Origin: a candidate division Kazan bacterium GW2011_GWA1_50_15
GTDB taxonomy: Bacteria; Patescibacteriota; Kazan-3B-28
Reading direction: 5' to 3'
DNA length: 64,000 bases
NCBI GenBank assembly: GCA_001029795.1
Contig: CP011216.1
Coordinates: 418,577-482,576, forward strand
The notes below the pieces were generated by a model, which had not been told where the DNA came from, did no database searches, and saw nothing but the letters and a program-made list of their open reading frames with translations. A program made the position numbers and the translations under genes. Positions 14,340 to 63,600 of this stretch are shown in pieces. The first letter of the stretch is position 1. The number at the start of each line of letters is the position of its first letter.

Positions 14340-15269
14340 ATGGATCTCTCAGTCGTTATTTTAAATTGGAATACCCGCGAGCTGTTGAGGGATTGTTTGG
14401 CGTCGATATATCGCTATACTGCCGGCATTAATTTCGAGGTGATAGTAGTGGATAACTCTTCGACTGATGGCAGCCAAGCGATGGTTGTCTCTGCATTCCC
14501 ACGGGTCAAACTAATCCAAAACACCGACAATCTTGGATTTGCTGTCGGCAACAATCAAGGCATCCATGTTGCCGCTGGCCGTTATATACTTCTGCTCAAT
14601 AGCGACACAATCGTACTCGGCAACTTAGCCGAGGCTGTTAGCTTTCTCGATCGGCACCCGCAGGTTGGGATGTTAGGAGTTAGGGTGTTAAATAAGATCG
14701 GTACTATCCAAGAGACTTGCACTAGACGGTTCCCGAGTATCTTGAGTAAGCTAGTCAACTATTTCCGTATCTCGGCTCGGTTGATCGGCCGACTAGTCCC
14801 CCATCTAGAACAGGACCAACAATTTGACTACGATCGGGCCCAGCCGGTTGAGGTGGTGTCGGGTGCATTTATGATGCTTCCCCGCGGGACGATTGAACAA
14901 GTGGGGGGGCTAGATGAATCATTCTTCCTCTATGCCGAGGACATTGATTGGGCCAAACGGATCCATGCGGCTGGCTATGAAATTTGGTACGCGCCAGTCG
15001 TGACTATTACCCACTATGGCGGAGAGACCAGTTCGCAAATACCCGACCGAACCCATTATCTGCGTTTGCACAGTTTGGCCAAATATTTCGACAAACACTA
15101 TGGCCGCCCTTACGGGAATCTCTACCGTACAGTACTGTACATTACGGTTCTGCTAACCTATCTACCGGTGTTGGTAACTTGGTGGCTGTCCTACGGTAAA
15201 CGCCGCAGCCGCCTGGGCGAGTTGGTGAGACTTTTCCACAAGGTCTTATTTAACCCCGCCCTTCGATAG
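14340..15269 (+). CDS. glycosyltransferase family 2
   Basis: N-terminal SVVILNWN...VIVVDNSSTDGS and DxD-type GT-A motifs. Confidence 0.8.
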   Translation: MDLSVVILNWNTRELLRDCLASIYRYTAGINFEVIVVDNSSTDGSQAMVVSAFPRVKLIQNTDNLGFAVGNNQGIHVAAGRYILLLNSDTIVLGNLAEAVSFLDRHPQVGMLGVRVLNKIGTIQETCTRRFPSILSKLVNYFRISARLIGRLVPHLEQDQQFDYDRAQPVEVVSGAFMMLPRGTIEQVGGLDESFFLYAEDIDWAKRIHAAGYEIWYAPVVTITHYGGETSSQIPDRTHYLRLHSLAKYFDKHYGRPYGNLYRTVLYITVLLTYLPVLVTWWLSYGKRRSRLGELVRLFHKVLFNPALR

Positions 15270-15273
15270 CACT

Positions 15274-15969
15274 CTACTTGGTTACCTCGACATACATTGA
15301 CCTATAATCCTCGTTGGCTTCGGCTGGATAAGTCCCTTCAAAATCAAAATCGCGGCAGCTGGTTTCTTGAAACTGCTTACGCGTAATTCCCTCTCGCCGG
15401 AAACCGGCCCTAGCCAAATCGTTGCAGAGCGATTCAAAATCCCATGCGTTCTGGTGAGCCAGAGTATTATCCCCTAGCGCTCGCTGGCCGCTAGGAGATA
15501 AAAAGTCCTCCTTTAGCGCCTCGAACAAAGAGTAGTCTTTGTTGTATTTGGTTTTGGCTCGCTCCATCCGCCTGCGGAAGAGTTGGAAGTCTCGGTTACC
15601 GCTGACGTACTCTCTAATACTGCGTTCTGCGTCTGGCAGAACCAAACGGAAACTTCCTCCCATTTTCAATACCCGATAACGCTCGCTAAAGATTCGCGGA
15701 GCAGCAAAAATACTCATATGTTCAAACACATGGGAACCATAGATGGAACTGACCGATCCGCTCGGGAGGGGTAGAGATTGATCTTTATTAAAATCCAGAC
15801 GAATATCGCTGGTATGTTCTACATCGATGGCGAGCCAATGGGTTGACGGTTTAACCCACTCGGGACCGGGGCCAAAGTGAAGTTTATACGGCAGTTGGTA
15901 ATGGTGCAAATCTAGCGGCTGTCGCTTTGTCACCAACCGATACCGGCGCATGAGTTTCTCGACTATCAT
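15274..15969 (-). CDS. SAM-dependent methyltransferase-like protein
   Basis: methyltransferase post-motif-II segment SVSSIYGSHVFEHM; no clear motif I, so tentative. Confidence 0.4.
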   Translation of the reverse strand: MIVEKLMRRYRLVTKRQPLDLHHYQLPYKLHFGPGPEWVKPSTHWLAIDVEHTSDIRLDFNKDQSLPLPSGSVSSIYGSHVFEHMSIFAAPRIFSERYRVLKMGGSFRLVLPDAERSIREYVSGNRDFQLFRRRMERAKTKYNKDYSLFEALKEDFLSPSGQRALGDNTLAHQNAWDFESLCNDLARAGFRREGITRKQFQETSCRDFDFEGTYPAEANEDYRSMYVEVTK

Positions 15970-18215
15970 CGCAGAGAATCAATGAATTTTTGTGCGGCTG
16001 TGGCCTTGGCAGGGTCTAGCTTAGCGACCATTTTCGCCTCGTTCACAGCATCATCTAACCGGCCTAGGGCTTGATAGATAAGGGCTGAGTTCATGTGGTA
16101 CTCTACCTTCTTGGGGTCCATCTCAAGGAGCGCCTGCTGATATACCAGCGCAGCATTATACTTTTGGCTTTGGAAGAGAAGATCCGTGATCGCCGAAAGC
16201 AACACTGGTTCGACGTCGACGAAATTGATCTTTATTTGACTAGCTTTATCAAAGTAATTAATCGCTATATCGTTGTGTTTCTCTAAGTACTCTAGTACGC
16301 CGAACCAAAAGTTTATCTCTCGAGGCGCCCGGCTAAGGGAGTTGGCCTGGTCGAGAGCGGCTCGGGCAGCCTTAAAATCCTCAATTAACATCAGACCTTT
16401 AGCCCAGTTCAGATAAAAGTATTCTCGGTTGCTATTATCGGCTATCAGGGCGTTGAACTCCACCTCGGCGGTGGCTTTAGCTTCTGGCATAACTAGCGCT
16501 GTTAGTAAATGGAACAGCGGACGGCTCACTTGGAGCTGAACATTGTTGGGCTCTGCCGCTGCCAGCTGCGCCTGTCTTGCGAGACCTTTCTCCCAAGCGG
16601 CTAAAGCCTCTTGCGGCTTGTTCTGTTTATAGAGAGCCACCCCACCACGGCGATACCATCCCAGATCAGAATAGTGAAAAAATTGGTTCCAAGGTGACCA
16701 GCGCTGATCGAGAGATTCTTGGATAGTAAGAGCGGTTTGGTAGTCCTCCCGCTGCGCCAACGCCTCAGCCCGGTAAGTTGAACGGCTGTTCGCCAGAGTT
16801 GGGATTAGGACAACGATAACCGTGTAGCCGGCAACTCCGGCGAACAACGACCCAGTAATCCAGCGCGAGAGCCGACCAACTGGACGCTGGAGCGGGACCG
16901 ACTCTGTTGATAACCCACTGGACACACGCGATGCGATAAGGGCGACTAATACCCCGCAATAAATTAGACTCAACGGGGTTTCAAAGGCGGTCATGTCATA
17001 CACCAGATAGGCCACCATTGTGGCGATAAGTGATACCCAGAGTGTGTTTTCTGGCCCAATATAGTTTTGGGTTAACAGCCGTCGCAGATAGACCCCAACC
17101 GCAACCAGCACGGCCAGCAGCCACAGCAGCCCACCTAGGCCGTTAGTAGTAAGTTGGTCGATGACTAAGTTGTGGGCTCGATCGGTAAATGTTTCACCAT
17201 ATCCCAGATCACCCAGCTCGGCCGAGTAGCTCTGATTCCAAGCGACATTAACATTCTCGTTGCCGAATCCAAAAATCGGTCTGGTGCGCCAACTATCCAG
17301 CAGGGTCGAATATGTGACTAGACGAGAGCGAATAGAGTTACTAGCCAGCGTATAAGAAAATATGCGCTCCAGCCCCAAGGGGGTCTTAAACCAGAACAAT
17401 CCAAAACTGATCACTAATAATATCCCTAACACTAGCCAAACGATTTTAGAGTGGCTTCTCTGGGTTTGGCCACTTTGACGACGGTTGACCAGCCAGAGCA
17501 GTATCAACCAGACGATCAACCCGGATACCAAGCCCAACAGCGGGCCACGGGACAACGACAGCACGATCGCGGCAACCTGGAGTATCGCGCCTAGACCGTA
17601 CCACAACCGGCTGGCTAACCGCTTGGATTTCCAACCCAGATATAGAGTAATAAAAATGGTTAATAGTAAAAGTCCGCCCATAAAAATTGGGTTACCAGTC
17701 AGGGCGTGGATGCGCCCGCTGGATAGGCCGATCAGCCCTGGCAGATGGAGCGCCTGACCCAAGCCATACAGACCAGTTAGAATGCCTACATTGGCCACCC
17801 ATACTAGCAGCCTATCCCACCCAGATTTTGGTATCCAAATGGCCGCCAAAAACCAGACCCACCACCACAGACTAGTAAAAAGCAGTAGGCCGGTGGCTCG
17901 ACTGGTAGTCCCCCAAAAACTGCGGAAGAAGTCTACCCCAAAATAGGCACTCGCAAATGACCAGAGCAGCCAACCGAGCGTTACCCAAAATAATCGATTT
18001 CGCCAAATTGGAGCAATTCGCGACCAACTAAAAGCTGGCGACCAAACTACCGCCAGCGTGAAAATTAGTGTTAGCGACAGAAATAGCAGTTCGCGACCGA
18101 AACCAAACCGGTGATGGAGACCCGAGGGCAGCATCAGCGGGAGTAGAATTGTAGCAATTAAAAGTAGGTCTGCCAACCACCCGTAACCCGTGATCCGCCA
18201 ATTAGCCTTGGTCAT
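15966..18215 (-). CDS. O-antigen ligase/Wzy_C-family polytopic membrane protein fused to C-terminal TPR repeats (possible O-oligosaccharyltransferase)
   Basis: about 450 aa with at least 10 TM helices including a SRGPLLGL loop, then TPR repeats. Confidence 0.6.
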   Translation of the reverse strand: MTKANWRITGYGWLADLLLIATILLPLMLPSGLHHRFGFGRELLFLSLTLIFTLAVVWSPAFSWSRIAPIWRNRLFWVTLGWLLWSFASAYFGVDFFRSFWGTTSRATGLLLFTSLWWWVWFLAAIWIPKSGWDRLLVWVANVGILTGLYGLGQALHLPGLIGLSSGRIHALTGNPIFMGGLLLLTIFITLYLGWKSKRLASRLWYGLGAILQVAAIVLSLSRGPLLGLVSGLIVWLILLWLVNRRQSGQTQRSHSKIVWLVLGILLVISFGLFWFKTPLGLERIFSYTLASNSIRSRLVTYSTLLDSWRTRPIFGFGNENVNVAWNQSYSAELGDLGYGETFTDRAHNLVIDQLTTNGLGGLLWLLAVLVAVGVYLRRLLTQNYIGPENTLWVSLIATMVAYLVYDMTAFETPLSLIYCGVLVALIASRVSSGLSTESVPLQRPVGRLSRWITGSLFAGVAGYTVIVVLIPTLANSRSTYRAEALAQREDYQTALTIQESLDQRWSPWNQFFHYSDLGWYRRGGVALYKQNKPQEALAAWEKGLARQAQLAAAEPNNVQLQVSRPLFHLLTALVMPEAKATAEVEFNALIADNSNREYFYLNWAKGLMLIEDFKAARAALDQANSLSRAPREINFWFGVLEYLEKHNDIAINYFDKASQIKINFVDVEPVLLSAITDLLFQSQKYNAALVYQQALLEMDPKKVEYHMNSALIYQALGRLDDAVNEAKMVAKLDPAKATAAQKFIDSLR

Positions 18216-18822
18216 TTTGTGACATCAGATAATCTAAGAACGACTGTAGTAGTTCAGAATCTTTGATCCGGCCTAGACCCTGACGAGTGATATCAATGGC
18301 TAGCTGGCGGCCGTAGGCTCGGTCCATATCGGGCCGCAATAGATACAGATCGCCTAAGTTCCGGTAGACGGTTTCTTGGCGCGGGTTCAATTTTAATGAA
18401 CGTGTGTAGGCCGCTTCTGCTCCGATAAAGTCCCCTCTATCCCTTAGGACATTGGCTAGATTATTCCAAGCGAACCAAGCTCTAGGTTCAACTTCTACGG
18501 CCAGTTGATAGGCCGCCCCCGACATCTCTAGCTGATTTAACGTGTACAAAGACACTGCCCGCTGATACAGAGCGTTAAAGTTACGGGGATGGGTCTCAAG
18601 GATCTTGTTAGCTTCCTCTAGTCCGGCGCTAACGTCTGAGTTAAGTTGGGGTGGCTGACGCAGCCCCACTGTGTTGGCTACCCCTAGCCCCAGCCAAACT
18701 AACAACCCGAGGCCGATCAGCCCCATCCCCCACTTAAGCCAACTGGGATGCCGAGAATTAGTGATTAGCCTCCAAATAGTTGTCCCTGCGCGACGCAATT
18801 TTACAATTAATGATCTAACCAT
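18202..18822 (-). CDS. TPR-repeat membrane-anchored protein
   Basis: N-terminal TM helix plus TPR repeats; overlaps neighbours. Confidence 0.6.
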   Translation of the reverse strand: MVRSLIVKLRRAGTTIWRLITNSRHPSWLKWGMGLIGLGLLVWLGLGVANTVGLRQPPQLNSDVSAGLEEANKILETHPRNFNALYQRAVSLYTLNQLEMSGAAYQLAVEVEPRAWFAWNNLANVLRDRGDFIGAEAAYTRSLKLNPRQETVYRNLGDLYLLRPDMDRAYGRQLAIDITRQGLGRIKDSELLQSFLDYLMSQNDQG

Positions 18823-19390
18823 TTTTTAAACGAGTTAATTCATCCTTAGCCGCTTGATTATTGGGATTAAGCGCGACCACCTTTTCAAAGTATTCGATAG
18901 CCTTGTCGGTGTTGCCGATCGCCTCATAGAAATTACCCAGAACTAGAGGATAGTGAATGTTTTTAGGATCCTTAGTGGCCAAATCGGTCATATATTTTTC
19001 GAATTTATCCCGACCGGGCGTCTCTGGATGCGCACCGTAGAGATCTCCCAATTCATAGTACACATTCGTATAATCCTCGTGGCCATTGTTGATGGCTATC
19101 CACCACTCCTCCGCTGCCGCGTCGTAGAGCCCTAGGTCGTTGTAGACGTGCCCGGCTTCGTAGTGGCCGACATAGCCCTTTGGCAGACGGATATTGAGTT
19201 GACGGTAAGTAGCGGCGGCCTGATTCAGATCGCCGGCGGTTACTTGAACCCGAGCTTTAGCTAAGAGTTGACCGATGGGCATCGTCGCACGCAGAACCAG
19301 CCAGACGGCAACCCCGGCCACCAGCACTATGCCTCCGGCTAGCCACCATACCCTGTGGTCCCACAAGAATTTTTTATCAAAAATATTCAT
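18815..19390 (-). CDS. TPR-repeat membrane-anchored protein
   Basis: N-terminal TM helix (WWLAGGIVLVAGVAVWLVL) plus TPR repeats. Confidence 0.6.
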   Translation of the reverse strand: MNIFDKKFLWDHRVWWLAGGIVLVAGVAVWLVLRATMPIGQLLAKARVQVTAGDLNQAAATYRQLNIRLPKGYVGHYEAGHVYNDLGLYDAAAEEWWIAINNGHEDYTNVYYELGDLYGAHPETPGRDKFEKYMTDLATKDPKNIHYPLVLGNFYEAIGNTDKAIEYFEKVVALNPNNQAAKDELTRLKNG

Positions 19391-19424: not shown

Positions 19425-19470
19425 AAGCTCCCCCAATGGATTGGGGGAGCTTCAAAAAAGCTCCCCCAAT
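19425..19470. repeat. tripartite inverted-repeat element A-A'-A (aagctcccccaat / attgggggagctt / aagctcccccaat)
   Basis: 13-nt arm at 19425-19437, its reverse complement at 19440-19452, and a second direct copy at 19458-19470; can form two mutually exclusive hairpins. Confidence 0.6.
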
Positions 19471-19516: not shown

Positions 19517-22500
19517 TTAGGCTGTCAACTGCGAGTAAGCAGTCGGCAGGTTCTTGATCAAGTAACCGCTGGTCCAGTCAGCTGACGAGGCCGGGACATC
19601 CGTACCACCATTGGTGTCGTCTGCTAGTGTGTACAGATGGTTGATGGCCGAGACATCCGACCAGACAAAGGCAGCTGCCTCCTCAGTGGCATCCTCACCA
19701 GTACTCACGTTCAGACCCACATCAAGACCGGCACTGTCGTCAATATCAGTCATATAGACGTAAGTGGCGGTTGGAGCTGCTGCTTCACCGTCAACCCGGA
19801 CACGGATGTAGTCATCGTCGGCTGGAGTTGAGAACCCAGCCAAGGTGGCTTTCACCGTGTAGGTCTTGGTGGCGCCTAGCCCAATGGACTCTTCACTGTC
19901 GGTACCGGCCTGATCCCACACAACGTGGAATGTGCCGCTACCTTCAGCCAGGGTTGAACCGCCGGTCTCGATGGAAGTCCCGCCTGAGTTCAACACGCTC
20001 ACCGTGCCAGTGATGTCAGTGGAACCCCTCCAGAAGGTGAAGGTGCCAGCATAAGGAGTGTTGTTGGTGCCGACATTATCAATAATGTCGTAACCAAATG
20101 TAATTTCCTTAAGGGCAATTTCACCAGCGGCGTCCGCCGTCACGCTGAACGAGAAGATTGCGTTGTCGGAACCATTGGCGATCGTACTGGTGCCGACTGG
20201 TACATAGGTCACTGTCGGCTTGGATTTGTAGAGGTATTGGTCGTTAGCCGAGATGCCGGTAACGGTCAAGTTATCGTCATCTAGGGTACTCAAGCCAATC
20301 GCCTCGAACTCATCGTCGTTACTGGTGTCCACCGACAAGCTGACATCTAGGATGTCCCGGAAGTCGGCAGGATAACCACCACCGATCGGATAGGTGTCGG
20401 CGTAGACATCCATGAAGGCGTAGCTGTTCTTCGGGATCCAGAAGCCCTTGCGCCCGCCAGCATTTAACTGGAAGACATGGTCGTTCTGGGAACCGATAGC
20501 CAGCGTAACCGATTCTTCTACACCGTCAACATTCTTGTACTTGACGATAAGATTCTTGACCGAGTCGTAACCGGCTGACAGGTCGAAGGCGACCTTGTTC
20601 ACCGTGTAGGCGTCGTCAGTAGCCGACCAACGCATTTGCAGCATACGGTTCATGTTCGAGTTGGCGATGACCACACCTATTTCAGGCGTGTCAGCGCCAA
20701 CCGCCACCGCGATGCTACCATTGGCCTGAACTGTTATTGTACCAGCCCCAGTAACATCGGTTTCGGCGATAGCAGTACCCGTGTCGGCACCCGTGGCTGT
20801 GACATCTGCACCAGTTACTACATCGTCAAACAGCCCAATGGCATGTTGGCCGCCAGTAGTTGCGCTAGCGCTCAAATCAGCCACAAAGATGATTTTAACA
20901 GAACCACCCTTAGGTACCCGAATGGTCTGCGTCAGAGTGAATGCTTGGGTGTCATCGGTACCAGCTGCGCCGTCAGGCTGTTCGGTACTACTGATCTTGG
21001 TTTCGTAGCTACCGTTGTTGTCCAGATCGGCCCACAACTCAGCATTGTAGAGATCGCCCATATCACCAGTGGTGGCATCAACATTGTCGCCAACCGTGAT
21101 AGCAGAGATCAAGACATCCTCACCCGAGGCGGTCGCATCAAGCGACATTGTTGCCCAAGTGAAGTCCTGTACTCCGGCGACCACGTTGCCAGTGGTCGGC
21201 ACACCTAGGTCACGCAGGACTAATGCCCCTGCTTTAACCGTCTGGGTGTTGCCCGTCACACCGTAGGTGCCGCCCGGAACAATGGAGTTGTTGGTAATGA
21301 TACCCTTGGCAGTTACCTGCGCGGCCGCGTCAATAGCAGCGACCAAAGTATCACTAGCCTCAAAGTCGGTACCGAGTCTGACCTTGAACCCAACCTTGCT
21401 AATGCCAACTGGCAATACGAAGGTGTTGGTAAAGTCAAACTCTTCATCTGGATCGGTCCCATCCGCTGAACCATCAACGGGGCCAGAGAGGATATTGCCA
21501 GTGGCCATATCCACTAATCGGCCGTTAGTCAGGTCCGCATAGGTGACCACCGTGCTACCGTTAAAGTCAGTGACAGTAACGTCCACATGCACGGCGCTGA
21601 TTCTAACCGACTCACCACGCACATCAAAGTCGAAGACAGTCAGAAGCTGATTGTCAGCGACCGTAATGTTGCTGGTTGGCGGAGTGGAAGCGCTCTTACT
21701 GATAGTCAAACTACCAGAGTTAATAGTTTGGGTACCACCCAAACCGTTCCAGCTGCCGGTAGCGGTCGGGGTAATGTAGAAGCCGTAGCTAGTACCCTTC
21801 CCTGTAACTAATACGTCGGAGCCGTCCACGGCATCGGTGGTGATGGTCAAACCAACACCATCAACGATATCAAGCTGGGTTCTCAACCGAATGGAGTCGC
21901 CTTTGCCTAGGGTCAGGTTAACTGCCCAGGAAGCTTTACCGTCAGCACTCCATGAGGTAGCCGTACCAAGCGACACGTTGTGGGTCACATCCCACAGCTC
22001 AATGTTGTTGGTATCGGCAGTTTCGGTCGTACCCGACTTTAATACCGTAATGCGCTCGATCAAGACTGGCTCAGTCGAACCAGCAGTGAGCTTGAACGCA
22101 TTAGTAATAACGTTCGTGTCGCCCACGTCTGGAGTGGAATCAGAAATAGTTCCATCCTGGGCCATTGCCAGAGAACCGATCGTAACAGCGACCGTAGTCA
22201 TGTAGTTACCGTAGACCGGGGCGCCGTTGACCGAGGTAGCGTTAGAGACAATATCGGCATTGCTGGCAATACCTAACCGGGCGGTTAGACCCGATGTGGT
22301 GCCAGTGCTGATGAATCCAGCTCGCAGATAGAAATCTTGCGAACCAGTGATCTCTAGCGCTGGGGTGATGAAGATCTGGGCCTGATGGTTGGCGTTGAAG
22401 CCACCAGCAGTGTTCCCTACCTGTACCCCATCGGCCTTGACCAACTTGACATTCTCGATGTCAGAGTCGGCGCTCAGACCGTCACGAGTAACGTAGAGCT

Positions 22501-23236
22501 GAGAAACCTTTACTGTCGCCCCAGCGGCGGCGGTCAGAGTGATCTTGGTGAAGTTGGCATTACCGCCGTAGGCAACCGTGGAAGCTGCCGGGGTACCGGA
22601 AGAGATACCAACCGACAAGCCGCCGGTCGCCGGCTCGGCTGAGCCGCCGCCGATAATGAACCGCCAGAAGATGTCGCCAGAGGCGATAGCCCGGCCGCCA
22701 GCAGTTACCTGCTGAGCCCAGCCGTCGAACTCACGAACAACTTCGGTGTAAAGATCGTAGGTGCCATTGGCGGCAGAGCTGGCGATCTTCGCTGTCCAAG
22801 TCAGGGTCAGATCTTGACCCGGGTTAACTGCCGCGCCGTCATAGTAGGCAAACCGGTTGCCATTGATGGCGAAGCTTGATGCATCAAGCCAAGCGGGAAC
22901 ATTGTCCCGAGGATGCGAGGTACCAATACCCACCGCGTGGGCGTTGGGGTAGCTGGGACCTTCGCTCAAGAGAGCACTCTTACCATACATGGTCAGAGCT
23001 TGCGGATTGGTCGAACGGTTGCGAATGGTCAGGGACATATTCACTGTGTCGCCCGCGTTAGCGCGCACCACGTGAGCCGGCCCTTCCACTGTACCGCTCT
23101 GCGCAATCCACTGGTACCGGAAGGTACCGAGGTTCTCAAAAGCCAGCGCTTGCGGCGCGGCGAAAGCCACAGCCATTGATGTCGCCATCAACCAAGCCAG
23201 AGCTTTTGAGGTGTTGCGTAAAACTGTATTGCTCAT
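19517..23236 (-). CDS. large secreted Thr/Gly/Ala/Asp-rich cell-surface protein (S-layer-like or adhesin-like)
   Basis: 1239 aa; N-terminal signal peptide ending AFAAPQALA; long low-complexity T/S/G/A-rich repeats; no catalytic motifs. Confidence 0.6.
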   Translation of the reverse strand: MSNTVLRNTSKALAWLMATSMAVAFAAPQALAFENLGTFRYQWIAQSGTVEGPAHVVRANAGDTVNMSLTIRNRSTNPQALTMYGKSALLSEGPSYPNAHAVGIGTSHPRDNVPAWLDASSFAINGNRFAYYDGAAVNPGQDLTLTWTAKIASSAANGTYDLYTEVVREFDGWAQQVTAGGRAIASGDIFWRFIIGGGSAEPATGGLSVGISSGTPAASTVAYGGNANFTKITLTAAAGATVKVSQLYVTRDGLSADSDIENVKLVKADGVQVGNTAGGFNANHQAQIFITPALEITGSQDFYLRAGFISTGTTSGLTARLGIASNADIVSNATSVNGAPVYGNYMTTVAVTIGSLAMAQDGTISDSTPDVGDTNVITNAFKLTAGSTEPVLIERITVLKSGTTETADTNNIELWDVTHNVSLGTATSWSADGKASWAVNLTLGKGDSIRLRTQLDIVDGVGLTITTDAVDGSDVLVTGKGTSYGFYITPTATGSWNGLGGTQTINSGSLTISKSASTPPTSNITVADNQLLTVFDFDVRGESVRISAVHVDVTVTDFNGSTVVTYADLTNGRLVDMATGNILSGPVDGSADGTDPDEEFDFTNTFVLPVGISKVGFKVRLGTDFEASDTLVAAIDAAAQVTAKGIITNNSIVPGGTYGVTGNTQTVKAGALVLRDLGVPTTGNVVAGVQDFTWATMSLDATASGEDVLISAITVGDNVDATTGDMGDLYNAELWADLDNNGSYETKISSTEQPDGAAGTDDTQAFTLTQTIRVPKGGSVKIIFVADLSASATTGGQHAIGLFDDVVTGADVTATGADTGTAIAETDVTGAGTITVQANGSIAVAVGADTPEIGVVIANSNMNRMLQMRWSATDDAYTVNKVAFDLSAGYDSVKNLIVKYKNVDGVEESVTLAIGSQNDHVFQLNAGGRKGFWIPKNSYAFMDVYADTYPIGGGYPADFRDILDVSLSVDTSNDDEFEAIGLSTLDDDNLTVTGISANDQYLYKSKPTVTYVPVGTSTIANGSDNAIFSFSVTADAAGEIALKEITFGYDIIDNVGTNNTPYAGTFTFWRGSTDITGTVSVLNSGGTSIETGGSTLAEGSGTFHVVWDQAGTDSEESIGLGATKTYTVKATLAGFSTPADDDYIRVRVDGEAAAPTATYVYMTDIDDSAGLDVGLNVSTGEDATEEAAAFVWSDVSAINHLYTLADDTNGGTDVPASSADWTSGYLIKNLPTAYSQLTA

Positions 23237-23279
23237 TAAATTGTTAGATTGCTATTAGTTCTATGCATATTTGTTTTGT

Positions 23280-24263
23280 TTATTCGGAAACTTGCCCAAG
23301 CGAATTGTTTTGTTCGCCTTCGACCCGAGGCAAAGCGTTATTATCCTTACTGGGATACCACCCAATAAGCTTGCTATCGATGGTAATCTTCTGAACGACG
23401 ATGCCTTCCTCGCCCAGTTCTCCGATAACGTTAGCGTTGACTAGCCCGACATAAGCGGAGATGTCAACATCAACGCCCAACAGTCTATAGACCGTACCGT
23501 TAGTGTTGATAGCTGGTTGGCCATAAGCGGTAGTTAGGACACCGCTAAATGAATTATTTGGTCCCGCCGCCTCGTCGCTAGGCAAGAGGTCATCCAGCTC
23601 CTGACGAATAGCCGCTACGCTCTTTCTGACGTCTTCTTTCCCGATATTTTCTTTGACAATGGTGCTGAGAATGGTTTTCTGAGCATCCACTAGCGACTTC
23701 AGTTTAGCCACCAAATCCACCGATGAGGTGCTGGCAGTATCTGTCTTCTGGAGCGCCGAGACAGCGTTCTTGGCACTTTCTAGCGCCTTCTGAGACTCTT
23801 TGACTACTGCATCCAATTTGGTCTGGTCGGCCCCGCTGATGGCTTGCAAACGCTCGTCGGCGATAGTTAGTTGAACCTCCGCCCGTCTGGCAGGATCGCG
23901 AGTCAGAGCTAGCTCGATAGTCTCAAATGCCTTACGGACTACGAATAGCGGTTGGCCCGGGTCGGCGTCACGGGCGATGGCCCCGGTGGTAAAAGTAGCG
24001 ACGAACACTGTGGCGATCAGGCCGACTGTGGCGGGTAGCCCCAACATGATCTTCTGGGGACGAAAGATACTAGCTAATTTATTGACTGGCATAACTAAGC
24101 CGACGGCCTCAGTTTTGGTCTGCATCGCGTCAATGAGGTCTAACTGACCGATCTGTTTGAATAAGCGGTCACGGATCTTCTGGCGTTGGGTCAACGACAA
24201 AACCGCATCCTTCCCAAGGATAGTCAGATCTTGTTCAAGTTGTGAGAACTGCGATCTTGCCAT
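23280..24263 (-). CDS. single-pass membrane protein, anti-sigma-factor-like (DUF5667-like architecture)
   Basis: cytoplasmic N-terminus, one TM helix, periplasmic helical domain with PGQPLFVVRKAFETIELALT block shared with the paralogue at 25948-26919. Confidence 0.45.
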   Translation of the reverse strand: MARSQFSQLEQDLTILGKDAVLSLTQRQKIRDRLFKQIGQLDLIDAMQTKTEAVGLVMPVNKLASIFRPQKIMLGLPATVGLIATVFVATFTTGAIARDADPGQPLFVVRKAFETIELALTRDPARRAEVQLTIADERLQAISGADQTKLDAVVKESQKALESAKNAVSALQKTDTASTSSVDLVAKLKSLVDAQKTILSTIVKENIGKEDVRKSVAAIRQELDDLLPSDEAAGPNNSFSGVLTTAYGQPAINTNGTVYRLLGVDVDISAYVGLVNANVIGELGEEGIVVQKITIDSKLIGWYPSKDNNALPRVEGEQNNSLGQVSE

Positions 24264-24286
24264 TTAGTTTGGTAGAGTACGATAGT

Positions 24287-24913
24287 TTATTTTAATTGGT
24301 TCCCCTCAGCCCATAGGTGATCTACTTGGAGAGTCAGACCATCCAACCGACCTTCGACTGCGGCGTGACGGCCAGTCAGACTGCCCATCAATGTATTACT
24401 GATATCTTCGACACCGATCAGCTGTACCTCGCTGTAAGCTCCATAGAGAAGGGCTGGAGAGATATCCAGCGCTGGTTGATTCGTACGGATGATTAACCAT
24501 CCCTCAAGCCGATCTACTGCCATTGGGGGGGTAACTAATACTGGCGGAGTCGTTGGCCCGCCGACATTATCGGACAGAACTCGCTGCCCGATCAGACCGG
24601 TCCCATCGTCTAATGAAACTAGATAAAATACATTGCTAATGGTTGAGTCTTGGACATCGCCTTGGATCTCAACTGCCTGTCCGACATGAGCCCATAGGGC
24701 GTCAGGCGCAACCACGCGGTCAGTGATAGTCAGGATCGAGGCGTCGTTCACCCGCACTGCCGGATAGCCATAGCTAGTGATCAGCGTACCAGTCATGGTC
24801 GTGGCAGCTTCGGCTTTCGGCGCAAACAGAACTAACGCTACCAGGGCCAGAGTGGCCAGCAGCAGCGTCTTGATTATAAAAATGGTTCCGGAATAGATGT
24901 TTTGGAAAGTCAT
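24287..24913 (-). CDS. secreted hypothetical protein
   Basis: signal peptide LLATLALVALVLFAPKAEA. Confidence 0.5.
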   Translation of the reverse strand: MTFQNIYSGTIFIIKTLLLATLALVALVLFAPKAEAATTMTGTLITSYGYPAVRVNDASILTITDRVVAPDALWAHVGQAVEIQGDVQDSTISNVFYLVSLDDGTGLIGQRVLSDNVGGPTTPPVLVTPPMAVDRLEGWLIIRTNQPALDISPALLYGAYSEVQLIGVEDISNTLMGSLTGRHAAVEGRLDGLTLQVDHLWAEGNQLK

Positions 24914-25036
24914 AAAAGTGGAGTTAGAGGAATGTGGCTTGTGTGTTGTCCGCCAACTGGCGGATTCGCCCCATCTTGCGCTCCCCTAGCGCTTCTGACT
25001 TCCCCAAAAATTCTTTTCTAGAACCCTTAGGAAAAA

Positions 25037-25606
25037 CTAATTTTTTTCTAATTCCTGTCTGAGCCTGGCCAGCGCCCTCACTGTGATCGCTCGGACATTG
25101 GCCTCTTTCTTTTTGATGGCCTGAGCCACCCGGGCGATTGGCATCTCGTCTACGAACCGCAGCCGCAACACTTTCTGATACTCTTCCGGCAGCCGCTGCA
25201 GAGCTGACTCAATGTGTGATGCCTCGCGGTATGGTTCTTCCCCTTCGAGATCGGCTATCTCCGGCAGATTTTCGAAAGAGAGTTCCTCGCGACTACTAAC
25301 GCGATAGTAGTCGATCACCACATTACGCGCCACCGCGTAGAGCCAGGCAGAGAACTTGGCCCCAGCTTGCGGTTTGTACTGATGAATTTTTTGCCAGACT
25401 TTCAGGAATACCTCCGAGGTCATATCTTCGGCCATCGGTACGCTCCTGATCTTGAAGTAGATAAAGCGATAAACCCGCCTGGCCCAGATCTCGTAAAGCT
25501 CACCGAACGCTTGTTCGTCTCCCTCCTGAGAACGGTGGATCAGAGCGGTTTGTCTCTGGTCTGACTTGTCGGCTTTAAGCTGCAAAATGGCCATGCGGCT
25601 CTTCAT
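25037..25606 (-). CDS. RNA polymerase sigma factor, ECF (sigma-70 group 4) family
   Basis: region 2 (YRFIYFKIRS...EDMTSEVFLKVW) and region 4 HTH (IARVAQAIKKKEANVRAITVRALARLRQ). Confidence 0.85.
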   Translation of the reverse strand: MKSRMAILQLKADKSDQRQTALIHRSQEGDEQAFGELYEIWARRVYRFIYFKIRSVPMAEDMTSEVFLKVWQKIHQYKPQAGAKFSAWLYAVARNVVIDYYRVSSREELSFENLPEIADLEGEEPYREASHIESALQRLPEEYQKVLRLRFVDEMPIARVAQAIKKKEANVRAITVRALARLRQELEKN

Positions 25607-25733
25607 TAGTTATAACGGAAACTCCCCCTATGTTGTGACAGATAGTGGTAAAAATACAGTCCCACAGCGGACAATTGGTCATACACTTATTTGACAAGAT
25701 CGCTAATATTTAGGACCCTGATTAACGAGAGAA

Positions 25734-25762
25734 ATTATACCCATCTACCCCTGAAAAAGCAA
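25734..25762 (-). promoter_or_regulatory. sigma70-type promoter for the ECF sigma gene at 25037-25606
   Basis: minus-strand TTGCTT-17-TATAAT (rc of aagcaa 25757-25762 and attata 25734-25739). Confidence 0.5.
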
Positions 25763-25947
25763 GCCCTCCCGGAGTAGGAAGAACACGCCAGCCATCTGGC
25801 GTGTTCTTAAAGAGTAGACCCTCGATCTTGCTGTTCGGTAGGGCTCAGATAATAGTTCAGAGTGATGGACTAGAAGATATCAGAAGTTAGAATCTGGGGG
25901 TATATTTTACCCATAATTCATACTTCATTATTCACACTTCATTTACC

Positions 25948-26919
25948 TTACATCAAGTGCGGTGGCCAGTTCGGTTCCGGCTCTGGAGTCGTTGGCTTGG
26001 GCGGATACCAGGGAGACACTTGCTCGTACCAGTCCTGGGCCGCTTGGGCAACTAGAGCCATCTTGGCCTTTAGATCAGCGGCTTGGGCTGTGGCATCAGC
26101 CACATCTTGGTCTGTCCCAAGCAAACCTTCCGGCAACGGTAGTTTAGCGTCTTCTGTGTCCGTCGTATCTTCGTTATCGTCTTCGTCAAGTTGCTTTAGT
26201 ACCTCCCTATGGAGCTCCAGCATCTCTTTGGCTGACTCCCCTCTCCACTCCCGCAGTTTGGCGCGGATCGGGATCTGGTTGATATCGCTAGCTTCAATCG
26301 CATTCATCCGCTCCTCACGCTTGGCCATCACCTCGTCGAGATGCTCGACTATCTTTTGGAAGGCCTCCCGTTCAGCTTCGGTCTTAGCGGCGGCTAACTT
26401 CTCTTCGAATTTGGTCTGCACCGTATTGACCCGCTCGATACTCTTGGCCACCCGCGCAACAGCGTCCTGTTTGTGCTCCTCGAACTTGGCCTTCATCGCT
26501 TCTGGCCACTCACTCGGGTCGAGCTCCTGCAGAGCTTTCAGCTCGGCTAATCTCTCCTCACTGAACTTGGCGAATAAACCAGCTTTGGCTTCTGGGGCCT
26601 GAGTGATACGCTCCTGTATCCGTTCGATCCATTGATCGATAGGGTAAAGCGCGTCGCCGGGCTTGGCCGAATCGGCCAGTGCGGCGGTACCGCCGCCTAG
26701 GGCGATAACTAGGGCTATAACTAATGGAATAAGTGGCATAGCAAATCTCCTTTGATTAAATAGATTATTAGTCTGATAGGTGTTAGTCCGCTCTGGCAGT
26801 GTATTTATTACACCCATTAGCTTATTTTTGAGCTGGCTTTTGTCGCTAACCGATAACTGAACCCGGCGGCCTGCCTGGCGGATCAGCTGTTCTATCTGTT
26901 TGTCGGTGTAGTTGGTCAT
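25948..26919 (-). CDS. single-pass membrane protein, anti-sigma-factor-like (DUF5667-like), coiled-coil and Pro-rich C-terminus
   Basis: N-terminal cytoplasmic segment, TM helix PLIPLVIALVIALGG, block PGDALYPIDQWIERIQERIT, E/K-rich helices, PEPEP tail. Confidence 0.45.
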   Translation of the reverse strand: MTNYTDKQIEQLIRQAGRRVQLSVSDKSQLKNKLMGVINTLPERTNTYQTNNLFNQRRFAMPLIPLVIALVIALGGGTAALADSAKPGDALYPIDQWIERIQERITQAPEAKAGLFAKFSEERLAELKALQELDPSEWPEAMKAKFEEHKQDAVARVAKSIERVNTVQTKFEEKLAAAKTEAEREAFQKIVEHLDEVMAKREERMNAIEASDINQIPIRAKLREWRGESAKEMLELHREVLKQLDEDDNEDTTDTEDAKLPLPEGLLGTDQDVADATAQAADLKAKMALVAQAAQDWYEQVSPWYPPKPTTPEPEPNWPPHLM

Positions 26920-26988
26920 AGAAAATGAATAGTGAATCAGGAATTATGAATTATGGACAGAAAGACGCCTCTTACCATGATTCGTTAT

Positions 26989-27519
26989 TCATGCTTCATA
27001 ATTCGCTCTTAGTTTATCTAGCCCCCGTTTGACTATAACGCGGAGGTGATTCTCGGTTTTGCCAGTAATTTCGGCTATCTCCGGATACTCCAGCTCCTCC
27101 ACAAATTTTAGCTTGAGAACGGTCTGATAGAGCTCCGGCAATTGGTCGATATTATCAACGACTCTAGCCATCTCGTCAGCCAACTCAACTTCCGCCTCTA
27201 TATCCGTGCTACCAGAGCGATTTATTACGGCGTCCAGGGAAACTGTCGGCCGGTAGCGGCGGTAGTGATCAATTAGGTTATATCTGGCGATAGCGAACAG
27301 CCAGGTCCTGAAGGACCTGTCAGGGTTATATCGGCGCAGGCTCTGCCAGGCTTCCAGCCAGATCTGGCTCAGAAGATCTTTCGCCTGCTCGTCGTCGCGC
27401 AGACGAAAGGTCAGAAAGCGGTAGACACTATCTGATAGTTCGTCAAATAACTGGCCGAATGCGCCGCTATCGCCCTCCTTGGCCGCCCTAGCCAACTGAT
27501 TGATTTCTTGATTATTCAT
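26989..27519 (-). CDS. RNA polymerase sigma factor, ECF family (paralogue)
   Basis: region 2 YRFLTFRLRD...LLSQIWLEAW and region 4 HTH YPEIAEITGKTENHLRVIVKRGL. Confidence 0.85.
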   Translation of the reverse strand: MNNQEINQLARAAKEGDSGAFGQLFDELSDSVYRFLTFRLRDDEQAKDLLSQIWLEAWQSLRRYNPDRSFRTWLFAIARYNLIDHYRRYRPTVSLDAVINRSGSTDIEAEVELADEMARVVDNIDQLPELYQTVLKLKFVEELEYPEIAEITGKTENHLRVIVKRGLDKLRANYEA

Positions 27520-30061: not shown

Positions 30062-30111
30062 CAACTTTTGATTATATTTTTATGGTGTAATGATAAATGG
30101 GGATAAATGCC

Positions 30112-30140
30112 TTGACCTACAATGGTGTTGTAGGTATAAA
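30112..30140 (+). promoter_or_regulatory. consensus sigma70 promoter whose 17-bp spacer is a palindromic operator
   Basis: TTGACC (30112-30117), 17-nt spacer tacaatggtgttgtagg, TATAAA (30135-30140); palindrome cctacaatggtgttgtagg 30116-30134; divergent from the MerR-like gene. Confidence 0.6.
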
Positions 30141-31315
30141 ATTATTTACTGCAGCGGATAATCCCTCCGCACCTACAACGGTCTTTCAACTGAGACATAG
30201 AAAAAGATCACGATGGCTAAAATTGTTGCGAGGGTTAACATAGTGTTGTAGGTTACCTACAACACTATTGTAGAAGACCTACAACATAGTTGCAACCCCC
30301 AACATTTTTGCTTACAACATAGTTGCGGGTCAGAAAGGCCTATATATAGTTATATAATATAGTAAAGCGTTTTTCCGAAACATAGGCCTACAACACCCTT
30401 GCAGGCATTTCCCCGTAGGCCTATAACACCCTTGTAGGTGGCCTACAACACTCTGCAAAGTTGTCTACAATTGACTTTCAACCCCGATTTATGTTGTAAT
30501 CACTCAACACCTATGAGGGCGCGTTGGGGATAACTGAAATTTTTAGCCACCTACAACACCGTTGTAGGCTAACAAATATTTATGGAAGCGGAAAAATCGT
30601 TCGCGTCTACAATACTGTTGTAGGTTGGGGCAACGTTGCAGTAGATGATTACACATATTTTGTAATTATTTGTCAATATTTAGTCAGAATTTGTCAAGGG
30701 GTCTTATTCTACCTGTACACAAAAAACACCCCTACTTGGTAGCAGGGGTGGGTGTGCGATGCTTTCCGTTCCAAAAGAAAGCCTATCATGTTCCAGCCCA
30801 ACGGCCGAGATGAACAAAAAAGGAGGGACCGGGCCGAGGCCTTAAGGACGCGAGGAGTTCGCATCCATTATCTCGGTATGGGGCAAAGGAGGAACTCACG
30901 GCCCGGGTCCCAGTGGAGGGGAGGGAATAGTTCCCATCCAAACGTTGAGAAGGTAATCTGTTGTTTACTTTCGCCTGAATGACGAAAACAACATTCGGTG
31001 GGGGAGTGGGACGGCTGGCGCCCCCCAAGAGTTCGCTGTCGTCCCTAAAACTTAATGATCGCCACCCTACAGGATAGTGGGGCGGCCATAATGGCAAGTT
31101 GTTAAGGGACGGGAGGGTTCCATTGTCTCCACAACTGCTAGTGTACGGAATACTTTGTGGGTTGGTCAATGAATTAACTAAAAACGTTAGTTTTGCCGTC
31201 TACACCAATCTGCGACGGCGGGGGAGAGTAGATTGGCATGCCTACAAGGGTGTTGTAGGGATTAAAGTAGCTCTGCGACATCAAAAATCATCCGCGCCTA
31301 CAAGGGTGTTGTAGG
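30116..31315. repeat. cluster of about 14 copies (full and half) of a 19-bp palindrome CCTACAA-N5-TTGTAGG in a non-coding locus
   Basis: near-perfect copies at 30116-30134, 30420-30438, 30550-30568, 30606-30624, 31241-31259, 31297-31315; variants at 30256-30274, 30279-30296, 30311-30329, 30387-30405, 30442-30460; half sites elsewhere; AT-rich tract 30338-30362. Confidence 0.8.
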
Positions 31316-31365
31316 TCTGCGGGGGAACGGTTCAAGGTTAAAAATGATAAGTTGCAGAATTAAGC

Positions 31366-31408
31366 AGGGGGATAAAAAATAAAAAAATCCCGCCCAGGGG
31401 GCGGGACG
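31366..31408 (-). terminator. intrinsic terminator of ndk
   Basis: hairpin tcccgccc-aggg-ggcggga with AAAAAATAAAAAAA on plus strand (long U-tract on minus transcript). Confidence 0.8.
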
Positions 31409-31421
31409 CCTGATGTGAAGT

Positions 31422-38337: not shown

Positions 38338-38640
38338 TCAAAATCCCATCAAAAATATCTGCTCGCCGCTGGCGCGCCGAAGAGCGGGTGAGGTTTCAAT
38401 GGTAGAATTGCGAAAGTTCTCGGGATTATTTAGTATAGTCTGGACATAATCGGTGGGGGAGATGGTCGAAGCCGTAACCGTCGGCGCTTCGGCCACTGTC
38501 GCGGCTTGCGTGGGTTGCAGAATCAAGTTAATCTCTTCGCTAAGCCAGACCACGCCGGCCAGTAAAATGTAACCCACCACCAGTACACTAAACATGCCGA
38601 GAGTTAAAAACCCAAAATGTCGGCGCTGGTGCTTAATCAT
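38338..38640 (-). CDS. small membrane-anchored hypothetical protein
   Basis: 100 aa, one TM helix; last gene of the giant-protein operon. Confidence 0.5.
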   Translation of the reverse strand: MIKHQRRHFGFLTLGMFSVLVVGYILLAGVVWLSEEINLILQPTQAATVAEAPTVTASTISPTDYVQTILNNPENFRNSTIETSPALRRASGEQIFLMGF

Positions 38641-43052: not shown

Positions 43053-43068
43053 ATTGTGATGCGAAACC

Positions 43069-63497: not shown

Positions 63498-63600
63498 AAT
63501 ATTCCCATAAATTAATAATGACTTGAACCTGCTCGACCCTGGATGCGTCCACCGAAAAACCAACAGGCGGTACGCGTTGCGTGTTACATACATTGCCGAG

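Follow-up and report, generated by a model that had tools for sequence, protein, structure and literature searches.

How are two extracytoplasmic function (ECF) sigma factor genes, each with a downstream gene that encodes a single-pass membrane protein, related to one another and to the gene for a giant secreted protein that ends the same gene series? The question is raised by a 64-kb stretch of DNA (hereafter the window) from the candidate division Kazan bacterium GW2011_GWA1_50_15, a member of the Kazan group of the Candidate Phyla Radiation (CPR, or Patescibacteria). CPR bacteria have tiny genomes and very few regulators and, to our knowledge, next to nothing is known of the control of their envelope, the interface they share with host cells. 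Taken as a whole, and with moderate confidence, our answer is that the genes form a conserved envelope regulatory island of Kazan bacteria, in which the membrane proteins, members of the family DUF5667, would be the cognate anti-sigma factors of the two sigma factors and the second sigma–DUF5667 pair would be tied to the giant protein.

All six genes lie on the minus strand and are given here in their direction of transcription. Module 1 consists of sigA (26989..27519), encoding an ECF sigma factor of 176 aa, and dufA (25948..26919), encoding a single-pass membrane DUF5667 protein of 323 aa that is the putative anti-sigma factor of SigA. Module 2 consists of sigB (25037..25606), encoding an ECF sigma factor of 189 aa, and dufB (23280..24263), encoding a single-pass membrane DUF5667 protein of 327 aa with a C-terminal beta domain, the putative anti-sigma factor of SigB; between them stands sec208 (24287..24913), a variable insert encoding a secreted protein of 208 aa. 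The last gene, giant (19517..23236), encodes a secreted all-beta protein of 1239 aa that is a candidate surface-layer (S-layer) or cell-wall-associated protein. An earlier note on this DNA had called these six open reading frames (ORFs), had described two paralogous ECF sigma genes with similar single-pass membrane proteins as partners, and had remarked on the short gaps near the end of the series. All six ORFs are indeed present, the pairing and the paralogy are as described, and the gaps measure 23 nt (sec208 to dufB) and 43 nt (dufB to giant). The products of dufB and giant match VE98_C0001G0449 and VE98_C0001G0448 of the source genome at 100% identity, mnmA lies 50 nt upstream of sigA, and the window holds no further sigma, DUF5667 or giant-family gene.

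Both sigma factors are ECF (group 4) members of the sigma-70 family. Their Pfam content is limited to PF04542 plus PF08281/PF04545: SigA carries Sigma70_r2 and r4_2, SigB carries Sigma70_r2 and r4, and neither has a sigma3 region. The ECF type assigned to them earlier is confirmed by the ECF superfamily model TIGR02937, which scores SigA at 100.6 bits and SigB at 93.1 bits (cut-off 42.9), and the two proteins are 35% identical to each other (E 3e-34). For both, the best named NCBIfam family is BldN (TIGR02952), with scores of 103.2 bits (SigA) and 130.2 bits (SigB) that fall short of the curated equivalog cut-off of 206.45. A comparison of start codons among the Kazan genomes places the conserved start of sigB probably at the ATG at 25594.

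DufA and DufB share 22% identity (E 5e-7) and score 47.0 and 36.0 bits, respectively, against Pfam DUF5667 (PF18915; gathering threshold 27), the domain spanning residues 86–182 of DufA. The earlier note had pointed to a periplasmic block, P-G-x-x-L-[FY]-x-[VI]-x4-E-x-I-x4-T, shared by both proteins; it is present in each (PGDALYPIDQWIERIQERIT in one and PGQPLFVVRKAFETIELALT in the other) and turns out to be the conserved core of DUF5667, since among 97 distant members of the family the P is invariant and the G, D, L and E are at least 90% conserved. The single transmembrane helix that had been proposed for each is likewise supported by hydropathy, which finds one hydrophobic helix per protein after a K/R-rich N-terminus of 56–71 aa holding 8–11 K+R. 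In DufA the hydrophobic stretch falls within residues 56–85 and we read the helix at about 61–82. The predicted topology of both proteins is therefore N-in and single-pass with a short cytoplasmic domain, and the secondary structure of an AlphaFold2 (AF2) model of DufB is consistent with it: three cytoplasmic helices, a transmembrane helix at 80–97, a helical domain at 107–226 and a beta domain at 237–302. Neither protein contains a cysteine, and a C-terminal motif, PNWPPH[LT]M, is conserved in DufA. The same layout recurs uniformly in the 97 distant members, each with a cytoplasmic segment of 50–100 aa, one transmembrane helix and then PGDxLY. The family is large: at E<=1e-3 it comprises 14,775 representative clusters, and at E<=1e-10 there are 2,287 (counted at 50% identity).

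Eight further independent Kazan-type loci were recovered, making nine genomes with the window. The order mnmA–sigA–dufA–sigB–[variable]–dufB is common to them and sigA–dufA is missing only in the locus labeled L004 (comparison loci carry L numbers, with L094–L097 being distant, non-Kazan CPR loci; W is the window locus). A DUF5667 gene adjacent to and co-oriented with an ECF sigma gene is found in 9/9 genomes, and a giant gene (1214–1578 aa) directly follows dufB in all six loci in which the contig continues. Because the same order recurs in nine independent Kazan genomes, the gene arrangement is far beyond chance. Orthologs of SigA (in 8/9 genomes) are 58–84% identical and those of SigB (9/9) 62–81%, so that the two sigmas together span 58–84%, compared with 34–70% for the DUF5667 proteins and 29–40% for the giant, a gradient that would be in keeping with a regulator in the cytoplasm, a sensor that is half exposed and a protein exposed on the surface.

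The slot between sigB and dufB holds sec208 in W, a weak counterpart of sec208 in L002 (24% identity, E 2e-6) and an Avd-like gene in L001, and is empty in L003–L005; L005 has a GIY-YIG gene between sigA and dufA. Sec208 has a hydrophobic N-terminus with an AEA site on direct reading and matches nothing in Pfam or NCBIfam. As it occurs in W and, weakly, in L002 only, we rejected it as a conserved member of the module. As a separate observation, Sec208 (24287-24913) seems to include, in two copies, a small beta domain like the C-terminal external domain of DufB (23280-23560; GxLxxxYGxPAx...), a weak resemblance (BLASTP E 5e-4 over 28 aa; hhalign E 0.002, probability 14%). Spacers in other Kazan loci also carry small, mobile-looking inserts (L001 9388-9774; L004 18855-19238; L005 7650-7997 and 18558-18857), encoding 23S_rRNA_IVP/bAvd-like four-helix proteins and GIY-YIG nucleases, that leave the gene order unbroken. 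The Avd-like genes in L001 and L004 raised the idea of a diversity-generating retroelement, which we rejected on finding no reverse transcriptase among the called genes (repeat pairs were not searched); these genes look like small mobile inserts.

The arrangement extends beyond Kazan. Of six non-Kazan giant homologs whose neighborhoods we sampled, four (L094–L097), one of them with a giant only 26% identical, keep the order sigma–DUF5667–giant, and the link of module 2 to a giant secreted protein that had been suggested from the window is thus seen in both sets of genomes. The sigmas of these four loci score nearer SigB than SigA, Wzy_C stands beside the giant gene in L094, L096 and L097, and three of the four have an HTH_DeoR gene upstream. 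Module 2 has the look of the ancestral unit, and sigA–dufA that of an added paralogous pair. Between the HTH_DeoR-like gene and the ECF sigma gene we also observed arrays of TAGGACA/TGTCCTA boxes (L094 4403-4429, L095 4291-4411, L096 2942-3026), which are probably the operator of the HTH_DeoR-like regulator.

What kind of protein is the giant? Its N-terminus, read directly, is a signal-peptide-like segment ending in AxA and it contains 12.3% Thr, in keeping with its initial description as a Thr-rich secreted protein. Rich in T/A/G/V/D/S, with a pI (isoelectric point) of 4.19 and 0 Cys, it has the secreted, large, acidic, cysteine-free and beta-rich character of a surface protein. It has no Pfam match. 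An AF2 model built with 98 homologs is entirely beta with a mean confidence (pLDDT) of 88.5, and in our own reading of its strand pattern the protein would comprise about ten beta-sandwich domains; Foldseek matches to the model are confined to generic tandem Ig-like proteins (PrgB, alpha2-macroglobulin, integrins and antigen I/II). In all, 111 members of the family were detected, 700–1580 aa long and mostly above 1,000 aa, spread over the CPR lineages Kazan, Nomurabacteria, Pacebacteria and Staskawiczbacteria. Many homologs outside Kazan carry PG_binding_1 (PF01471) and one carries SLH (PF00395), and homologs are annotated in their sources as 'peptidoglycan-binding protein'. A wall-anchoring module (SLH, PG_binding or similar) was not found in the Kazan giant at E<=10, which weighs against our overall reading. 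Earlier work predicted S-layer proteins in Patescibacteria (bioRxiv 10.1101/2024.05.28.596244), and we think it a reasonable inference that the giant is a wall-associated, S-layer-like surface protein.

The rival explanation that survives best is that giant is an independent transcription unit and a mere neighbor of module 2, the synteny reflecting membership in one envelope gene island; genes for TPR, Wzy_C and glycosyltransferase proteins do lie directly downstream of giant and beyond (14340-19390). We regard this as possible, though on the doubtful side, and much of its support comes from the DNA around the gene. An ECF motif is absent before sec208, dufB and giant in the window and in the related loci alike, so that the search for an ECF-type promoter ahead of the surface protein gene proposed in the earlier note leaves the one preceding sigB as the sole example. 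A −10-like motif (CAAATATGCATAGAACTAAT; 23254..23273, minus strand) lies 21 nt before the giant ATG. Its consensus, CAAATAnnnATAGAAyTAAT, is found 20–23 nt from the ATG in W, L001, L003, L004 and L005, and in L003 this fixed distance is kept even though the gap between dufB and giant has grown to 427 nt. Further upstream, inside the 3′ end of dufB, is an element conserved at the DNA level (CCTCGGGTCGAAGGCGAACAAAA; 23308..23330, minus strand). It reads CCTCGGGTCGARGRC-N-CAAAA, its synonymous positions are invariant across the Kazan genomes, and in L003 and L005 it is retained in DNA that does not code. Boxes of GGTCGA likewise stand 43–97 nt upstream of the giant homologs in L094–L097, and this presence of a GGGTCGA-type element in Kazan and distant lineages hints at a signal, in DNA or RNA, that serves the giant gene. 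The 427-nt spacer of L003 (10952-11378) has been enlarged by tandem short repeats (AGAATGA...) and three copies of a unit of about 45 nt (AAATTATTCTCTGAGCGAAATCAGGAAATACATTGCTTCGGC).

Predicted RNA structures bear on the same question. After the sigB stop codon there is an RNA hairpin (24999..25035, minus strand) of 16 bp, G.U-rich and followed by GGGGA repeats, which is present in 9/9 Kazan genomes with energies of −11 to −20 kcal/mol. Its position in L001, L003 and L004 is 192–452 nt past the sigB stop, beyond inserted sequence and on the dufB side. It may serve in attenuation, in processing or in stabilization. After the giant stop codon, a 15-bp GC-rich hairpin (19440..19470, minus strand; AUUGGGGGAGCUUUU-UUG-AAGCUCCCCCAAU), in a segment that folds with z = −4.1, likely marks the end of the transcription unit. 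The spacer between dufB and giant is unstructured (−3.4 kcal/mol) and forms no hairpin. The signs for a single operon are thus mixed. The earlier note had taken the short gaps to suggest co-transcription of giant with a regulatory module and had named strong separate promoters and terminators between the genes as what would speak against it; of candidates for such signals, the sigB hairpin and the −10-like motif before giant are there and a dufB–giant hairpin is not. Simple co-transcription is opposed by the motif that giant has upstream, by the conserved hairpin after sigB and by the lack of an ECF motif before sec208, dufB and giant.

Several of these results weigh against a regulatory tie between module 2 and the giant: the lack of an ECF motif before giant, the upstream motif that is kept across the long gap in L003, and the conserved sigB hairpin, which could attenuate read-through. 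To them we add that two of the six distant giant homologs have no neighboring sigma/DUF5667 pair and that none of 80 distant metagenomic DUF5667 loci (described below) contains a giant-family gene, which confines the module–giant link to one sub-branch of DUF5667. On the other side, the order sigma–DUF5667–giant is kept in 6/6 Kazan loci and in 4/6 distant lineages although the giant proteins themselves are only 26–40% identical, variable genes have entered the Kazan loci in the sigB–dufB interval but in no case in that from dufB to giant, and no hairpin divides dufB from giant. We therefore continue to favor a tie between module 2 and the giant protein over simple neighborhood.

Are the DUF5667 proteins anti-sigma factors? 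To address this on a broader basis, a metagenome scan with an alignment of a distant sub-family yielded 80 distant metagenomic DUF5667 loci, in which the neighbors were analyzed by ORF calling and hidden Markov models. In 65 of 76 assessable cases the DUF5667 gene is within 100 nt of, or overlaps, an upstream ECF-like sigma ORF on the same strand, the overlap often being 4–17 nt, and three further DUF5667 genes are within 800 nt of a sigma gene. Among the Kazan loci, dufA overlaps or abuts sigA in L002, L009 and L010. Adjacent, co-oriented genes with a single-pass partner are the rule for ECF/anti-sigma pairs, and most anti-sigma factors have one transmembrane helix (PMC7826278). In addition, the cytoplasmic N-terminus is the most conserved region among DufB orthologs. 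On account of this gene context, this conservation and the rule of adjacent single-pass partners, we consider it likely that DUF5667 proteins act as anti-sigma factors.

A second set of results weighs against that role, and all of them concern what the proteins lack. Pfam and NCBIfam find no zf-HC2, RskA or other anti-sigma domain in DufA or DufB, no known anti-sigma domain is present in the 97 distant relatives (96/97 contain DUF5667 only), and Pfam at E<=10 returns none for nine cytoplasmic N-terminal segments plus one full-length protein (P0159). The HxxxCxxC motif of zinc-binding anti-sigma factors is missing, and both DufA and DufB are cysteine-free. A profile of DufB orthologs searched against all PDB chain sequences at E<=10 produced coiled-coil noise only and no anti-sigma protein, RsbN included, and Foldseek returned nothing at E<=0.001 with the DufB model, which is of low confidence (pLDDT 60) and has a poorly modeled N-terminus. 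The label 'anti-sigma-like' given in the earlier note thus stands by gene context, architecture and the best-conserved cytoplasmic N-terminus and does not stand by domain content; the lack of a sigma-binding domain in profile searches, which the note itself had named as contrary evidence, is formally what these searches returned.

One could accordingly suppose that the DUF5667 proteins are ECF-dependent envelope targets or accessory factors and that sigma is controlled otherwise. The absence of a known anti-sigma domain in any profile or PDB sequence search would agree with this, as would the position of the ECF-type motif in L094–L096, where it precedes the DUF5667 gene and not the sigma gene. 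Against it, near-universal adjacency to sigma genes with frequent start/stop overlap is the pattern of sigma/anti-sigma pairs (PMC7826278), and the cytoplasmic segment of the proteins is more conserved than their external domains, so that we judge this explanation quite unlikely. Moreover, anti-sigma domains vary notoriously in sequence. RsbN itself matched no known domain until its structure defined class III (PMC6101532). An anti-sigma role thus remains the interpretation we prefer for DUF5667. In the literature searched, DUF5667 is not mentioned and no relevant link of ECF sigmas with CPR lineages was found; the text of the ECF re-classification paper, its supplements left aside, contains neither CPR nor DUF5667. 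ECF/anti-sigma modules themselves are of a known kind. Compared with that literature, what appears to be new, on the strength of sequence analysis, is that DUF5667 is an ECF partner family in CPR with no known anti-sigma domain, and that one DUF5667 branch is conserved alongside a CPR-wide giant surface protein.

The promoter that had been placed between the modules is borne out: the 341-nt gap that precedes sigB holds two conserved promoters, both on the minus strand. P1 (25734..25762) is a sigma-70-type promoter, TTGCTT-N17-TATAAT, whose TTG and TA.AAT do not vary among the nine Kazan genomes (alignment A3). About 95 nt downstream of it, P2 (25612..25640) is an ECF-type promoter, TGTCACA-N16-CGTTAT, presumed to serve sigB autoregulation; by its sequence, sigB has the AAC-type −35 and CGT-type −10 of a predicted ECF promoter. 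The pattern TGTMACA-N16-CGTTR has a single exact match in the window, at P2, and TGTMACA-N16-CGTTRT occurs exactly once in each of 12/12 related loci, always just before sigB. With up to two mismatches the P2 pattern gave 17 matches in the window compared with 11.6 in shuffled sequences and, in the absence of any enrichment, a second target site of the P2 type cannot be claimed; the one site with a single mismatch (63561-63588) lacks the CGT. Related motifs, TGTAA[CT]-N16/17-CGTCAT, precede the DUF5667 gene in the distant single-sigma loci L094–L096, and of 62 distant sigma genes linked to DUF5667 only 7 have a P2-like motif upstream, which makes the motif specific to a sub-group. A consensus RNA fold search of the sigB leader from P1 to the ATG gave no structure, and we therefore read its conserved blocks as DNA promoter elements. 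Rfam at E<=1 on 18-32 kb had no match in the intergenic regions, the sigB leader included, and on the whole window it returned tRNAs only.

Upstream of these promoters, a 13-bp hairpin after dufA (25779..25808, minus strand; AAGAACACGCCAG-AUGG-CUGGCGUGUUCUU), in a 71-nt segment that folds with z = −3.2, forms a terminator-like boundary between the modules. A comparison of the Kazan loci revealed no conserved promoter or ECF-type motif for sigA, which may be read from mnmA. A cascade in which released SigA activates P2, so that module 1 controls module 2, is very unlikely: the modules always stand in series with P2 between them, sigA is without a conserved ECF-type promoter and paralogous sigmas could overlap in promoter specificity, but P2 is intact in L004, which has no sigA–dufA, and the distant single-sigma loci, with sigmas nearer SigB, carry the same kind of motif. 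The retention of P2 in L004 favors autoregulation by SigB instead.

Taken together with the architecture of the proteins, the interpretation we favor, in which DUF5667 proteins are anti-sigma factors and module 2 is tied to the giant, can be laid out as a mechanism. SigA and SigB would be kept at the membrane by the short, conserved cytoplasmic N-terminal helices of DufA and DufB, respectively. An envelope signal would be received by the extracytoplasmic helical DUF5667 domain, to which DufB adds an outer beta domain, and the sigma factor would be released, perhaps via regulated proteolysis by analogy with other systems. P1 would provide a constitutive sigma-70-type baseline for sigB, and freed SigB would amplify its own expression from P2 by positive autoregulation. 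The SigB module would then either read through into dufB and giant, raising expression of the giant, or sense the state of a surface layer built by it. A more far-reaching version holds that the sigB–DUF5667 pair is dedicated to CPR surface-layer assembly and kept with the giant as a three-gene unit across much of the radiation, usually with Wzy_C nearby, that the external DUF5667/beta domain reads the giant or the state of the wall, and that DUF5667 is a large, structurally new anti-sigma class dominating ECF signaling in these reduced genomes; as a joint proposition we consider this unlikely.

If DUF5667 does prove to be an anti-sigma family, a new type of anti-sigma domain would be defined and thousands of uncharacterized proteins (the 2,287 clusters of the stricter threshold) would gain a function. 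The link between module and giant would offer an entry point into surface-layer biogenesis of uncultivated bacteria, and the exact P2 motif permits regulon prediction in complete Kazan genomes.

Two other regions of the window deserve mention. Between a MerR-like gene and ndk is an ORF-poor stretch of 1.36 kb (30065-31421) that contains all eight window copies of the 15-bp palindrome TACAA-N5-TTG[TC]A. The stretch is 81% identical to the same gap in L001 over 643 nt and 69–79% identical to four other Kazan genomes over 117–232 nt, the palindrome arms co-vary between genomes and Rfam has no match there; it looks like an operator or protein-binding array. Two further giant ORFs on the minus strand (38637-43163 and 43069-48366; 1508 and 1765 aa, overlapping by about 95 nt) are surface or adhesin candidates unrelated to the family of the 1239-aa protein, one with Kelch repeats and the other with Invasin_D3/Big_1, bacterial TSP3 repeats and a weak dockerin match.

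Finally, we compared the locus with known systems. Like sigma-E/RseA, sigma-W/RsiW and sigma-V/RsiV, each module pairs a sigma factor made of sigma2 and sigma4 only with a single-pass membrane protein gene directly downstream, and the membrane protein would have an N-terminus that is short and cytoplasmic and a sensor domain outside. Also in common is an AAC...CGT promoter of ECF type in front of the sigma gene, seen here for sigB (PMC7826278), and ECF sigma factors usually autoregulate and are encoded together with their regulators and targets (PMC7826278). Unlike the canonical partners, DufA and DufB have no class I anti-sigma domain, zinc motif or cysteine and their external domain is DUF5667, a Pfam family without assigned function whose threshold they pass and whose core motif they share. 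A gene for a site-1 or site-2 protease was not seen in the locus, where no dedicated search for one was made. With S-layer proteins anchored through SLH or peptidoglycan-binding domains, the giant shares a signal peptide, low pI, freedom from cysteine, a T/A/G/V/D/S-rich composition, large size and an all-beta fold, as well as homologs with PG_binding_1 or SLH and adjoining Wzy_C, TPR and glycosyltransferase genes; it differs in that the Kazan protein has no detectable anchor and bears only a generic Ig-like likeness to solved S-layer proteins. A further parallel is sigma-BldN/RsbN, which controls the chaplin/rodlin sheath of Streptomyces, RsbN being a class III anti-sigma factor with no known domains, reported homologs only in Streptomyces and surface-layer assembly as its proposed signal (PMC6101532). 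The Kazan system differs in that both sigmas are far below the BldN cut-off and that the DufB profile does not match RsbN or any other PDB chain. It resembles sigma-BldN/RsbN in that BldN is the best named family of both sigmas, in the association with proteins of the outermost layer and, as far as the DufB model can be relied on, in a membrane partner with no domain of known function, about three cytoplasmic helices, one transmembrane helix and a large external part.

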